27,421 nt of DNA from an uncultured Rikenellaceae bacterium (GCA_964481075.1 CAYZSD010000030.1:1-27421), one strand, 5' to 3'; positions 2,188 through 5,661 are shown, counted from the stretch's first letter. The notes: generated from the sequence alone by a model not told the origin. Made by a program: numbers and translations.

Positions 2188-2523
2188 ATGACATACCCCA
2201 AAACATCGCTTTTCGATGCCGATTTACAAGAAATTGCAGCACTCGCAAAAACCCTTTCGCACCCGGCAAGGCTAGCCGTACTTCGATACCTTGCCAGCTC
2301 CGAAACCTGTATCTCTGGTGATATTTCCGACGAAATCCCTTTGAGCAGAACAACAGTATCGCAGCATCTGCAAGAACTTAAGAGGGCTGGATTAATTCAT
2401 GGCGAAATTGAGGGAACCAAGGTTTGCTACTGCATTTGCAACGAAAATCTTAGTAAAGTCTTCAACCTTTTTCATCATTTTTTTGAAGAGATTGGAAATG
2501 GAAAAACAACCTTCTGCAAATGA
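2188..2523 (+). CDS. arsR: ArsR-family metalloregulatory transcriptional repressor (ORF track start 2155; ATG 2188 preferred)
   Basis: SLFDADLQEIAALAKTLSHPARLAVLRYLASSETCISGDISDEIPLSRTTVSQHLQELKRAGLIHGEIEGTKVCYCI: winged HTH of the ArsR family, with Cys residues. Confidence 0.9.
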   Translation: MTYPKTSLFDADLQEIAALAKTLSHPARLAVLRYLASSETCISGDISDEIPLSRTTVSQHLQELKRAGLIHGEIEGTKVCYCICNENLSKVFNLFHHFFEEIGNGKTTFCK

Positions 2524-3545
2524 TAAGCGCAGCATCTTCAAATACTAGCCATAAACTTGGTATCCCAGTAGTGTCTTCTAAATGGACCAAGACCGATATT
2601 TGGGAACATGTTAAGTTAAGATGGTCAATAGGTAGAAACAAATCCAAGGTAAAACCAGGGATTTATGCCATTGGCAATCCAACATCCGATTCGGATGTGT
2701 TTGTCACAGCAAATTACAAGTTAAGTTTCAACCATCTACGAAGAGCCCTCGATGGCTTTGATGCTTGGATACTTGTGCTTGACACAAGAGGTATAAACGT
2801 TTGGTGCGCTGCTGGAAAAGGGACTTTTAGCACTTCTGAACTGGTAAAGCGAATAAAGTGGCATGGATTGGAAAAGGTAGTGAACCATAAAAGGTTAATT
2901 GTACCCCAACTTGGAGCAACGGGTGTATCAGCACACGATGTTATGAAACGTTCGGGTTTTAGGGTAATCTTCGGGCCGGTACTCGCAAGCGATATCAAAG
3001 ATTTTATTAGTAATGGCTACAAGGCAACTCCAAACATGCGAAGGGTTTCATTTCCATTGTGGGAAAGAGTAAAGCTAATTCCAGTTGAACTCGCTTACGG
3101 CAAATACTTCCTTTTAATAATCCCGCTGTTTTTTTTAATCATTTCTGGTATTGACTCAACGGGTTTATCAATTGAAAAAGTAATAAACATTGGAGGAAAA
3201 TCTGTACTATCTTTAATTGTAGCATATATTTCTGGAAGCGCGATTACCCCAATTTTGCTGCCCTACATACCCTTTAAAAGTTTCTCACTAAAGGGACTTT
3301 TTGTGGGTATTATAAGTGCTGCTGCCCTATTCTGTTTGGGGGTAATTAATTATCCTTTGGCTGAGGTTGTTGCATGGTTCCTAATCATTGGCGGTTTATC
3401 GTCATTTATGGCAATGAACTACTCTGGCTCATCCACGTTTACATCGTTATCGGGAGTCAAAAAGGAGATGAAGTATGCGCTTCCATCGCAAATTTTTAGT
3501 TTGAGTGTTGGTTCTCTTACATGGATTGCAATGCGTTTTATTTAA
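2520..3545 (+). CDS. hgcA: Mercury-methylation corrinoid protein HgcA
   Basis: VTANYKLSFNHLRRALDGFDAWILVLDTRGINVWCAAGKGTFSTSELVKRI...HKRLIVPQLGATGVSAHDVMKRSGFRVIFGPVLASDI; cap-helix motif N93-VWCAAGK-100 (nt 2796-2819), followed by a multi-TM C-terminal domain. ATG overlaps arsR TGA. Confidence 0.96.
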   Translation: MISAASSNTSHKLGIPVVSSKWTKTDIWEHVKLRWSIGRNKSKVKPGIYAIGNPTSDSDVFVTANYKLSFNHLRRALDGFDAWILVLDTRGINVWCAAGKGTFSTSELVKRIKWHGLEKVVNHKRLIVPQLGATGVSAHDVMKRSGFRVIFGPVLASDIKDFISNGYKATPNMRRVSFPLWERVKLIPVELAYGKYFLLIIPLFFLIISGIDSTGLSIEKVINIGGKSVLSLIVAYISGSAITPILLPYIPFKSFSLKGLFVGIISAAALFCLGVINYPLAEVVAWFLIIGGLSSFMAMNYSGSSTFTSLSGVKKEMKYALPSQIFSLSVGSLTWIAMRFI

Positions 3546-3555
3546 TAAAAAGAAT

Positions 3556-3855
3556 ATGAGTAGATTAGTATATCTGTCTGGTGTGTCAACCCTTAAACTC
3601 GATGAAGAAAAATGCACTGGATGCACTATGTGCACCATTGTTTGCCCCCACGAAGTTTTTAAAATTGAGGATAAAAGAGCAAAAATTATTGACGTTGATT
3701 ACTGCATGGAGTGCGGTGCATGTCAGAAGAATTGCCCAGAGGGAGCCATTTCGGTAAAATCTGGCGTGGGATGTGCTGCTGCTGTAATTTCGGGCATGCT
3801 AAATATCGATAACCCATCGTGCTGCAGCATTCCTAAGAATACAAATTGTTGTTAA
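3556..3855 (+). CDS. hgcB: Mercury-methylation ferredoxin HgcB (ORF track start 3505; ATG 3556 preferred)
   Basis: 99 aa; CTGCTMCTIVCP and CMECGACQKNCP 4Fe-4S motifs, Cys73, C-terminal SCC...NCC; 10 bp after hgcA. Confidence 0.95.
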   Translation: MSRLVYLSGVSTLKLDEEKCTGCTMCTIVCPHEVFKIEDKRAKIIDVDYCMECGACQKNCPEGAISVKSGVGCAAAVISGMLNIDNPSCCSIPKNTNCC

Positions 3856-3878
3856 AAAAACATTCTAAAACTACTAAT

Positions 3879-4325
3879 ATGAAAATTCTGATTCTCTGTA
3901 CCGGAAATTCCTGTCGAAGCCAAATGGCCGAGGGATTCCTAAAGTCTTTCGATGCTAGCATTGAGGTTTACTCTGCTGGAACCGAACCATCAAGTCAAGT
4001 TCATCCGCTCGCCATTAAGGTGATGGCCGAGGCGGGTATCGATATCTCAAAAAATCAACCCAAAAGCGTTGTTCAATTCATCTCCGAAAGTTTCGATTTT
4101 GTAATTACCGTTTGCGGTGGTGCAAACGAGAGTTGCCCTACTTTTACTGGCAAGGTTGCAAATAGATGGCACATCGGTTTTGATGATCCCGCCGAGGCAA
4201 CTGGAACCGAAGAGGAGGTGCTGCAAGTTTTCCGCCGTGTGCGCGATGAGATTGCTGAGGGATTTGGCGGATTCTACAAATCGCAAATCAAAAAGGAAGA
4301 TAGGTGTGGTTGCTGCTGTGGGTAA
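3879..4325 (+). CDS. arsC: Arsenate reductase, low-MW phosphatase (thioredoxin-coupled) family
   Basis: MKILILCTGNSCRSQMAEGFLKSF active-site loop plus VCGGANESCP redox cysteines; unusual C-terminal CGCCCG. Confidence 0.93.
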   Translation: MKILILCTGNSCRSQMAEGFLKSFDASIEVYSAGTEPSSQVHPLAIKVMAEAGIDISKNQPKSVVQFISESFDFVITVCGGANESCPTFTGKVANRWHIGFDDPAEATGTEEEVLQVFRRVRDEIAEGFGGFYKSQIKKEDRCGCCCG

Positions 4326-4367
4326 GAAATATTCTAAAAATCATAAACAACCTAACTAGGTAAAAAC

Positions 4368-5396
4368 ATGAGTACAATAAAGCAAATAGGTTTCTTTGAA
4401 AAGTACCTAACCATTTGGGTTGCACTTGGAATTGCCTTTGGGATTGCAATTGGTCATCTTGTGGACGATGGCATTGAAATAATTAGCAGTTTGGAAGTTG
4501 CAAAGGTTAACATTCCGGTGGCAGTCCTAATCTGGCTAATGATCTACCCCATGATGCTTCAGGTTGACTTTACCAGTATCAAGCAGATTGGAAAAAAGCC
4601 CCGTGGGGTTGTGTGGACGGTAATCATAAACTGGCTGATCAAACCCTTTACCATGGCATTTTTTGCCTGGCTTTTCTTCTCAAAGCTTTATCAAGCGTGG
4701 ATCGACCCCTCATTGGCAGGTGAGTACATTGCGGGAGCTATTATCCTTGGTGCCGCACCCTGTACGGCGATGGTGTTTGTGTGGAGCTACCTTACCGATG
4801 GCGACCCTAACTACACGCTGGTTCAGGTTTCGGTTAACGACCTGATTATCCTTGTAGCTTTCGTGCCAATTGTTGGGCTTCTGCTAGGTATTACCGATGT
4901 AATCATTCCCTATGATACCCTTGTGGCAAGTGTTGTAATTTTTGTTGTAATCCCTTTAGTGGCAGGAGTAATAACCCAAAGAATACTTATCAAGTTACAC
5001 GGGATAGAGTGGTTTAAAACCGTTTTTCTTCCCAAACTGAAACCGATTAGTATTGTAGCACTGCTCGTTACGCTTGTATTGCTGTTTGCATTTCAGGGGC
5101 AGAACATTCTTAACAACCCTTTCATCATTCTGTTGGCAGCAGTCCCATTGGTAATTCAAACCTATTTCATATTCTTTCTGGCATGGTTTGGCGGCAAAAA
5201 GCTAAATCTTTCCCATCCAGTTTGCGCACCTGCTGCAATGATTGGTGCCAGCAACTTCTTCGAGCTGGCTGTGGCCGTTGCCATTGCGCTATTTGGGTTG
5301 CAGTCGCCAGCCGCACTGGTTACGGTTGTTGGGGTGCTGGTTGAGGTGCCTGTGATGCTCTCGCTGGTAGCTTTTGCCAATAGAAAAGGGTATTAA
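4368..5396 (+). CDS. acr3: ACR3-family arsenite efflux transporter
   Basis: 342 aa; [93 protein letters not shown]. Confidence 0.95.
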
Positions 5397-5436
5397 CTTA
5401 CAAACAAACAACTGACAATCTACTCAATATATCAAA

Positions 5437-5661
5437 ATGCCAACATTCTACTGCAAATCGTGCAATCTTAAATTCGAGGCCGAGGGAGTAAAACAGGAAT
5501 GGATTGACCCTACTTTTGGCCCTTGCAGCAAGCTAACTGCTCCATGCCCTTCAAGTGGCGAAGAGTGCAATGAGTACCAATTACCTAAGCAGTCCAAAGA
5601 GGCTAATCAACCAAATTTTTCTGCTTGTGGCATGGGGGGAGGATGCCGTGGATGTGGATAA
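5437..5661 (+). CDS. Small Cys-rich zinc-ribbon-like protein, last gene of the ars/hgc operon
   Basis: 74 aa; MPTFYCKSCNLKFE...CSKLTAPCPSSGEEC...SACGMGGGCRGCG; 40 bp after acr3, same strand. Confidence 0.75.
   Translation: MPTFYCKSCNLKFEAEGVKQEWIDPTFGPCSKLTAPCPSSGEECNEYQLPKQSKEANQPNFSACGMGGGCRGCG

Follow-up and report, generated by a model that had tools for sequence, protein, structure and literature searches.

This report concerns the mercury-methylation genes hgcA and hgcB (hgcAB) found among genes of arsenic resistance on a stretch of DNA from an uncultured Rikenellaceae bacterium (GCA_964481075.1 CAYZSD010000030.1:1-27421); by the window, we mean the whole of this stretch, 27,421 nucleotides (nt) long. 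Open reading frame (ORF) calls and the raw sequence place six tightly packed genes on the + strand, between positions 2188 and 5661, in the order arsR-hgcA-hgcB-arsC-acr3-small Cys-rich ORF. An earlier reading of the same DNA, referred to below as the original prediction, had described this same-strand layout with an ATGA overlap and gaps of 10, 23, 42 and 40 bp, and it proved exact. The features of the locus are the following:

2138-2141, + strand: TTTG, a candidate -33 element of the Bacteroidetes type, placed 19 nt before the -7 box
2156-2173, no strand assigned: candidate ArsR operator, an 18-bp 7-4-7 dyad (TGTCGTA-TGTT-TGCGACA) conserved upstream of arsR
2161-2168, + strand: TATGTTTG, candidate -7 box of the promoter, which follows the consensus TAnnTTTG and lies within the operator
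2188-2523, + strand: arsR, ArsR/SmtB winged-helix repressor, 111 amino acids (aa)
2520-3545, + strand: hgcA, 341 aa, with an ATGA overlap with arsR at 2520-2523
3556-3855, + strand: hgcB, 2[4Fe-4S] ferredoxin, 99 aa, 10 bp after hgcA
3879-4325, + strand: arsC, arsenate reductase of the low molecular weight (LMW) phosphatase type, 23 bp after hgcB
4368-5396, + strand: acr3, arsenite efflux permease, 42 bp after arsC
5437-5661, + strand: Cys-rich ORF of 74 aa, 40 bp after acr3
5662-5692 and 5776-5806, no strand assigned: 31-nt inverted repeat, 84% complementary, enclosing the terminator
5735-5778, + strand: strong intrinsic terminator after the sixth gene, made of a GC-rich hairpin with a bulged stem (5735-5772) and then TTTTTT

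The six genes show the usual marks of a polycistronic operon, namely one strand, short gaps, a single promoter/operator upstream and a single terminator downstream, by which the unit is therefore bracketed; such an arrangement suggests that all six are co-transcribed as one mRNA. At the first junction, the ATG of hgcA (2520-2522) overlaps the TGA stop codon of arsR (2521-2523). Two independent sequencing runs reproduce both the arsR/hgcA and the hgcB/arsC junctions, with identities of 100% and 99.8%, so that the gene arrangement is not an assembly chimera. We retained the arsR start at 2188 rather than that of the longest ORF, at 2155, since the latter ATG sits within the conserved operator and -7 box region, where it belongs to the operator's left arm and precedes the -7 box itself; in the related locus L016, the ATG at the corresponding place is not in frame with arsR. 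The retained start lies 14 nt past the operator, as it does in the related loci L086 and L008. At the other end of the unit, the RNA fold of positions 5655 to 5830 reaches -52.2 kcal/mol (z = -4.2), a stability attained by none of 200 shuffled sequences. A simple terminator scan missed the terminator at 5735-5778 because its stem is bulged, and internal terminator-like sites are not in excess (3 found, 5.4 expected in shuffles).

The identity of the products was assessed using NCBIfam curated models with equivalog cut-offs, alongside Pfam and PDB searches. HgcA reaches 417.7 bits on the NF040863 equivalog (cut-off 275), and falls below the cut-offs of both the HgcAB-like fusion paralog model (206 versus 285) and the CdhE/AcsC model for the acetyl-CoA synthase gamma subunit (75.5 versus 306); given the latter score, it is not a corrinoid iron-sulfur protein (CFeSP). 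HgcB reaches 120.4 bits on the NF040864 equivalog (cut-off 99). By these model scores, the proteins are genuine HgcA and HgcB rather than the HgcAB-like fusion paralog. The motifs named in the original prediction are present as read from the sequence. In HgcA, NVWCAAGK occupies residues 93 to 100 of a cap helix (GINVWCAAGK), and all of its columns (N93 V94 W95 C96 A97 A98 G99 K100) are invariant in 22 relatives. In HgcB, the ferredoxin motifs CTGCTMCTIVCP and CMECGACQKNCP, two CX2CX2CX3CP, provide clusters C20/23/26/30 and C50/53/56/60, and additional cysteines are found at C73 and in the vicinal pairs C89C90 and C98C99, so that nothing expected of an HgcB is missing. The corrinoid domain of HgcA is homologous to that of CFeSP (PDB 2h9a, E = 7e-14; Pfam CdhD), the only protein retrieved by the PDB sequence search. 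Unlike the gamma subunit of CFeSP (AcsC/CdhE, of the Wood-Ljungdahl pathway), with which it shares this corrinoid-binding domain, HgcA possesses a cap helix that contains a Cys, as well as a membrane domain at its C-terminus. The latter comprises four to five hydrophobic segments within residues 186 to 341 according to Kyte-Doolittle profiles, a crude method: blocks 186-218, 228-250 and 254-301 (double), plus a weaker C-terminal segment, that is, at least four membrane segments. The nearest homologues carry the annotation Bacteroidales HgcA. Judged by every sequence criterion, hgcAB here is bona fide, and the pair would be predicted to methylate Hg(II). As the original prediction had noted, mer genes are missing: no match to a MerA or MerB family was obtained among the window ORFs that were scanned.

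The two arsenic structural proteins are of known types. ArsC belongs to Pfam LMWPc and scores 129.5 bits on the pI258-type equivalog TIGR02691, under the cut-off of 174.3, as do the ArsC proteins of relatives, including one encoded in a plain ars operon (the score is 123.9 for L016). It keeps the CX5R P-loop CTGNSCRS and the Cys pair VCGGANESC, with its 7-residue spacing, which are characteristic of the thioredoxin-coupled type. The protein ends in a poly-Cys tail, RCGCCCG (approximately 4300-4322). Among 25 ArsC compared, such tails (CGCCCG, GCCCCG, GCTCCG) are confined to the window, L086 and L088, the 22 others having none; arsC comes after hgcB in L086 and L088 also. The tail may serve in metal handling. 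Acr3 scores 380.7 bits on TIGR00832 (cut-off 282.8). It is 87% identical to the Acr3 of an arsR-arsC-arsM-acr3 operon of Perlabentimonas gracilis and only 33% identical to the Acr3 common in hgcAB loci, which belongs to a different subclade.

The regulator matches Pfam HTH_20 and HTH_5, as well as the NCBIfam metalloregulator model NF033788 (65.3 bits, cut-off 55), and its nearest PDB homologues are ArsR-family dimers. When 29 relatives are aligned, cysteines C41 and C82 never vary, and a C-terminal Cys is present in 23 of the 29. None of the characterized As(III) sites examined, that is, the alpha-3 CVCxxC of R773, the C-terminal site of AfArsR and the N-terminal site of CgArsR, was found in this protein, which has a single Cys at the alpha-3 position (ETCISGD). 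The set formed by C41, C82 and the C-terminal Cys is compatible with As(III) S3 coordination, in an arrangement unlike that of every characterized site.

The candidate operator overlaps the candidate promoter of arsR, and the regulator thus has a dyad at its own promoter and heads ars structural genes. TAnnTTTG is the -7 consensus of Bacteroidetes, known from the sigma-ABfr promoters of Bacteroides. Between positions 1500 and 6300 of the + strand, the site at 2161-2168 is the sole TAnnTTTG with a TTTG 17 to 21 nt upstream; a -33/-7 spacing of 18 to 20 nt is found also in L006, L008, L021, L023, L028 and L033, and TAnnTTTG is present in the arsR-proximal operator copy of most Bacteroidota loci. 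No TAnnTTTG box is present in any of the four intergenic gaps, and one occurs within the sixth gene, at 5511. The generalized dyad, nnWCGYA-N4-TRCGWnn, has 44 matches in 989 kb of loci, 27 of which lie at most 115 nt upstream of an arsR, a zone that represents 0.46% of bases. There is some circularity in this enrichment, as part of these very loci had served to derive the pattern. The arms of the dyad co-vary between lineages (TGTCG/CGACA, TAACG/CGTTA, TTTCG/CGAAA, GTTCG/CGAAC, TATCG/CGATA), and such compensatory changes should be expected of a site bound by a dimeric protein. An independent check was provided by scanning metagenome contigs for the exact 18-mer: in 66 of the 80 loci read, arsR is directly downstream. 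Most of these loci are plain operons (arsR-arsC-arsM-acr3, arsR-arsC-acr3 or arsR-arsM), and hgcAB is present in only four. Since the same operator/ArsR pair mostly heads plain ars operons, the ArsR of the window is the ordinary ars-operon repressor of its group, and hgcAB would be an occasional cargo of the canonical ars regulon. In L009, an operator pair stands immediately before hgcA, with no intervening arsR.

Other candidate control sites were discarded. The perfect palindrome ACTTTTGCAAAAGT (2100-2113) does not recur ahead of arsR in relatives, and a match within two mismatches arises in 36 of 100 shuffles. A sigma-70 promoter scan returned 9 sites (12.5 expected), for a promoter type that is wrong for Bacteroidetes. 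Elsewhere among the relatives, a tandem pair of ArsR operators precedes genes for a conserved lipoprotein-like protein of 247 aa, an FtsX-like permease and an ABC ATPase (L009, 6472-6489; L013, 1803-1848), which are a candidate, unannotated member of the ArsR regulon. In L015, the sequence upstream of arsR at the end of the contig (1-122) is a tandem array of about 17 copies of the heptamer CTGAAAT.

To place the locus among its relatives, we used the 80 genome loci with the closest HgcA, one per GTDB species, annotated by tblastn, and a neighbor-joining tree of HgcA. In a 35-locus clade of Bacteroidota/Ignavibacteriota-type HgcA, arsR is upstream in 28 loci, and arsC and/or acr3 lie on the same strand in 25; the corresponding counts outside the clade are 7/48 and 3/48. 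The linkage of ars and hgc genes is thus clade-wide, mostly with another gene order than that of the window. The dominant one is arsR-(accessory)-arsC-hgcA-hgcB-acr3, where the accessory genes are thioredoxin-like, DsbD-like, ArsP or rhodanese. The window forms one HgcA subclade with L086, L088 and L090 (69%, 65% and 63% HgcA identity, respectively). The first two of these have the same derived order as the window, arsR-hgcA-hgcB-arsC-acr3; L090 shows arsR-hgcA-hgcB up to the contig end. The Acr3 subtype of this subclade differs from the one usual in the clade.

A plain counterpart of the operon exists in the isolate genome of P. gracilis (L083), where the same operator, with one mismatch, precedes arsR-arsC-arsM-acr3. 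Its ArsR, ArsC and Acr3 are 58%, 62% and 87% identical to those of the window, and a homologue of the small Cys-rich gene lies 3 kb downstream. Unlike the window, this operon has no hgcAB and has arsM between arsC and acr3. More broadly, arsM is present in 12 of 20 complete same-operator operons without hgcAB versus 3 of 22 with hgcAB (Fisher p = 0.003), counts that carry no phylogenetic correction and come from two samples chosen differently. Usually, hgcAB occupies the position that arsM holds in plain operons (arsR-arsC-arsM-acr3), and no arsM was found in the window. Both arsM and hgcAB are present in L012, L015 and L016. In these three loci, ArsC and ArsM are fused in proteins of about 410 aa (for example, L016, 4695-5927), whose genes lie upstream of hgcAB and of those for a Cys-rich protein and a DsbD-like membrane protein.

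Linkage of ars genes and hgcAB has been published since 2020 (McDaniel 2020, PMC7438021; Gionfriddo 2022/2023; Zhang 2023; Peterson 2025, PMC11984097), and the central point of the original prediction is for this reason a rediscovery. In metagenome-assembled genomes, Bacteroidetes included, hgcAB is flanked by arsR, arsC, acr3 and arsM (PMC7438021, Fig. 6; PMC11984097, Fig. 4c; bioRxiv 10.1101/2022.10.17.512643). The loci of McDaniel 2020 and Peterson 2025 resemble the window in that a gene resembling arsR lies upstream of hgcA, with arsC and acr3 close by on the same strand; the window differs from them by its arsR-hgcA-hgcB-arsC-acr3 order, its other Acr3 subclade, the poly-Cys tail of ArsC and the sixth, Cys-rich gene. 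What this locus contributes is the gene order of the subclade, a defined promoter/operator, the canonical nature of the ars repressor, and the ArsC tail and sixth gene. An operator or promoter for hgcAB finds no mention in the Gionfriddo preprint, the one paper among these that was searched for it.

The experimentally studied system closest to the window is that of Pseudodesulfovibrio mercurii ND132, in which an upstream ArsR controls hgcAB and arsenic raises hgcAB expression (bioRxiv 10.1101/2022.10.17.512643). As in the window, an ArsR-family gene lies directly upstream of hgcAB, and in ND132 this gene, arsR2, is co-transcribed with hgcAB. The ND132 locus has no further ars genes, and ArsR2 represents a distinct, hgc-associated lineage that has a four-Cys motif and responds to S-adenosylhomocysteine (SAH). 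Unlike ArsR2, the ArsR of the window is a canonical regulator of plain ars operons, with the C41/C82/C-terminal Cys pattern. In a lake metatranscriptome, the presence of arsR is linked with lower hgcA expression (PMC11984097).

Taken together, we consider it likely (probability of about 0.7) that the locus is an operon of six genes on the chromosome of an uncultured Bacteroidales, repressed by ArsR, in which hgcAB is the cargo of an ordinary arsenic-detoxification operon. Transcription would start from the Bacteroidetes-type promoter (TTTG at 2138-2141, 19-nt spacer, TATGTTTG at 2161-2168), whose -7 box lies inside the dyad at 2156-2173, so that an ArsR dimer bound to this dyad would block it. 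The most likely thiophilic inducer, As(III), would bind C41, C82 and C110 and release ArsR, the three cysteines acting as the sensor. A single mRNA, arsR-hgcA-hgcB-arsC-acr3-small Cys gene, would then be made, ending at the hairpin and T6 stretch of 5735-5778, and the ATGA overlap would couple translation of hgcA to that of arsR. ArsC would reduce arsenate and Acr3 export arsenite, while HgcA and HgcB, made in parallel, would methylate bioavailable Hg(II). Because bona fide hgcAB lies within a one-promoter, one-terminator unit under a canonical ars repressor, we infer that hgcAB expression is wired to arsenic. The original prediction of such wiring has gained comparative support from the operator, the canonical ArsR and the bounds of the unit; its expression and inducer parts are still predicted from the DNA.

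Several points weigh against this interpretation. Promoters may be present inside coding regions. Hg(II), Sb(III) or another thiophile may equally be the effector, because ArsR has no R773-type CVCDLC and the cysteine triad was deduced from conservation alone; to this may be added the partial circularity of the dyad enrichment. In ND132, the regulator also responds to SAH, and the hgcAB transcript level is not predictive of the methylation rate (Gionfriddo et al. 2022/2023). Finally, no Bacteroidales had confirmed Hg methylation as of one 2020 preprint (bioRxiv 10.1101/2020.04.01.018762).

The sixth gene encodes a protein of 74 aa with an N-terminal CxxC knuckle and a tail, CGMGGGCRGCG. It has no Pfam, NCBIfam or PDB match at threshold, the PDB search yielding only spurious C2H2-finger knuckles, and its AlphaFold2 model is unusable (predicted local distance difference test score, pLDDT, of 37.9). 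It has four close homologue clusters, and a profile search found 75 representatives in 1.84 billion proteins. The ORF is a real coding gene, since its differences from homologues concentrate at third codon positions (22, versus 6 and 4 at the two others). The family is characterized by CxxC...C...CPxC and a C-terminal Cys-rich tail; in the protein of the window, the CPxC knuckle no longer has its second Cys. Close homologues reside in ars-like or rhodanese neighborhoods without hgcAB, and a more distant one beside unrelated genes. The label of zinc ribbon given in the original prediction is thus backed by the CxxC...CPxC spacing of the wider family, which suggests a ribbon, but by neither a curated family nor a confident fold, and the product is best called an uncharacterized small Cys-rich protein, probably co-transcribed with the operon. 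The 31-nt inverted repeat that follows exists as one copy in the window; it could be an element of the repetitive extragenic palindrome or miniature inverted-repeat transposable element type, or an extended bidirectional terminator. No Rfam family was detected anywhere in the window, the inverted repeat included.

Convergent to the operon, the - strand encodes at 5830-6204 a protein of 124 aa that begins with a membrane anchor or signal and has 18 Cys in a region rich in Lys, as well as a His-rich end, and for which no Pfam or NCBIfam family was found. Its only distant homologue with a known context (P0129, 52% identical) is also convergent to an ars operon, acr3-arsA (L211), and Cys-rich membrane proteins of similar composition are encoded inside the hgc/ars operons of L013 and L016. 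Further downstream, at 6396-8691 on the + strand, three genes overlap at their ends (7643-7652, 8347-8350) and appear to form one operon adjoining the Cys-rich gene; their products are a histidine kinase, a response regulator of the OmpR type and a small multidrug exporter of the SMR family.

Upstream of the operon are a HigB/HigA-like toxin-antitoxin pair (Gp49 and dnstrm_HI1420; 106-721, - strand) and an isolated DUF4172 remnant, the N-terminal domain of Fic (1780-1968, + strand); both hint at past gene flux, with no accompanying mobility genes. Between them, at 912-1521 on the + strand, two overlapping ORFs that are not in the same frame (912-1220 and 1108-1521) code for pieces of a PF03773 'ArsP_1' permease and share a repeated GDxSGxKG. 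Together, they look like a frameshifted or truncated pseudogene, whose sequence is identical in an independent run (L001). We considered whether this fragment is a relic of the ArsP of relatives and rejected the idea, as it shows no similarity to the ArsP of related hgc loci.

Four other explanations were weighed against an arsenic-regulated hgcAB cargo. According to the original prediction, the genes could spread with an arsenic island. In favor of a mobile island by which hgcAB would be spread horizontally, the cassette of five genes is conserved while no gene of its flanks is shared with L086, L088 or L090, the Ignavibacteriota loci L047 and L054 nest in the Bacteroidota-type HgcA clade, and the toxin-antitoxin pair, Fic remnant and broken permease are close by. 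Relatives have diverged enough for ordinary synteny loss to explain the differing flanks, and the 27-kb window contains no integrase, transposase, relaxase, conjugation genes or tRNA-border signature; its GC content is flat (0.35 to 0.445) and its neighbors are housekeeping genes (gltX, ychF, glycosyltransferases). With only non-syntenic flanks, gene remnants and a toxin-antitoxin pair as hints, we did not retain the genomic island, which seems distinctly improbable. Still more so is an adjacency devoid of regulatory meaning, in which hgcAB and arsC-acr3 would be separate units and hgcAB constitutive from an internal promoter. A passage of PMC11984097 does cite hgcAB as long thought constitutive, and intragenic promoters are conceivable on sequence, as illustrated by the TAnnTTTG at 5511. 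Against such independence stand the 4-bp overlap, gaps of 10 to 42 bp without a -7 box, the lack of any credible internal terminator, a tight same-strand linkage that is maintained throughout a deep clade, with three or more positional variants, and the operator placed directly before hgcA in L009; we therefore hold it to be highly improbable.

The nature of the signal and the function of hgcAB raise the two remaining alternatives. The regulator might sense something other than arsenite, such as Hg(II), another thiophilic metal, SAH or reactive sulfur, and the operon would then be a thiol-stress or methyl-cycle unit. The unusual Cys arrangement of ArsR is in line with such a signal, as are the dual response of ND132 ArsR2 to SAH and arsenic, the presence of the non-arsenic regulators YgaV, BigR and HlyU among the nearest solved relatives, and neighborhoods rich in rhodanese, thioredoxin-like and DsbD-like genes. 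Yet the operons headed by this regulator/operator pair are overwhelmingly of the arsC-arsM-acr3 kind, which is what marks an arsenic regulon, and three thiolates are the classical coordination of As(III), so that we judge a non-arsenite signal unlikely. As for function, hgcAB might serve arsenic or metalloid metabolism, for example by corrinoid methyl transfer replacing the S-adenosylmethionine-dependent ArsM, with Hg methylation as a side reaction. The native function of HgcAB is still under debate, the ND132 delta-hgcAB mutant is more sensitive to As(V) (Gionfriddo et al. 2022/2023), hgcAB sits in the arsM slot in most relatives that carry it, operons with hgcAB are depleted of arsM, and that of the window has no arsM. 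On the other hand, ND132 made no mono- or dimethylarsenicals and suffered no significant overall loss of As resistance, three loci combine arsM with hgcAB, the arsM counts have the weaknesses given above, and HgcA acting on arsenic has no biochemical precedent; a role in arsenic metabolism is thus doubtful at best. A more specific version, in which hgcAB is an arsenic-regulon module that repeatedly took the arsM slot for a metalloid-related function (corrinoid methyl transfer to As, or a linked detoxification), methylmercury being an arsenic-induced by-product, is kept at a low probability, and strikes us as very unlikely, because the counts are phylogenetically uncorrected and ND132 makes no methylarsenicals. 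An ordinary arsenic repressor governing hgcAB as cargo accounts best for the operator, the regulator and the bounds of the unit.

If hgcAB indeed runs from an ordinary arsenic repressor and promoter, then arsenic, and not mercury, would set hgcAB transcript levels in these organisms, which would bear on the interpretation of hgcA transcript data and on co-contaminated sites. Bacteroidales-type hgcA can account for a considerable part of the hgcA reads of an environment, and made up 13% of hgcA coverage in one sulfate-enriched lake (bioRxiv 10.1101/2020.04.01.018762). With an operator defined to 18 bp and relatives in culture, the locus is open to direct tests, as P. gracilis has the operator and Paludibacter jiangxiensis has hgcAB. 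The depletion of arsM in hgcAB operons also offers a cheap lead on the long-standing question of the purpose of HgcAB: should hgcAB truly have taken the place of arsM, the environmental methylmercury produced by these abundant fermenters would be an arsenic-induced by-product.

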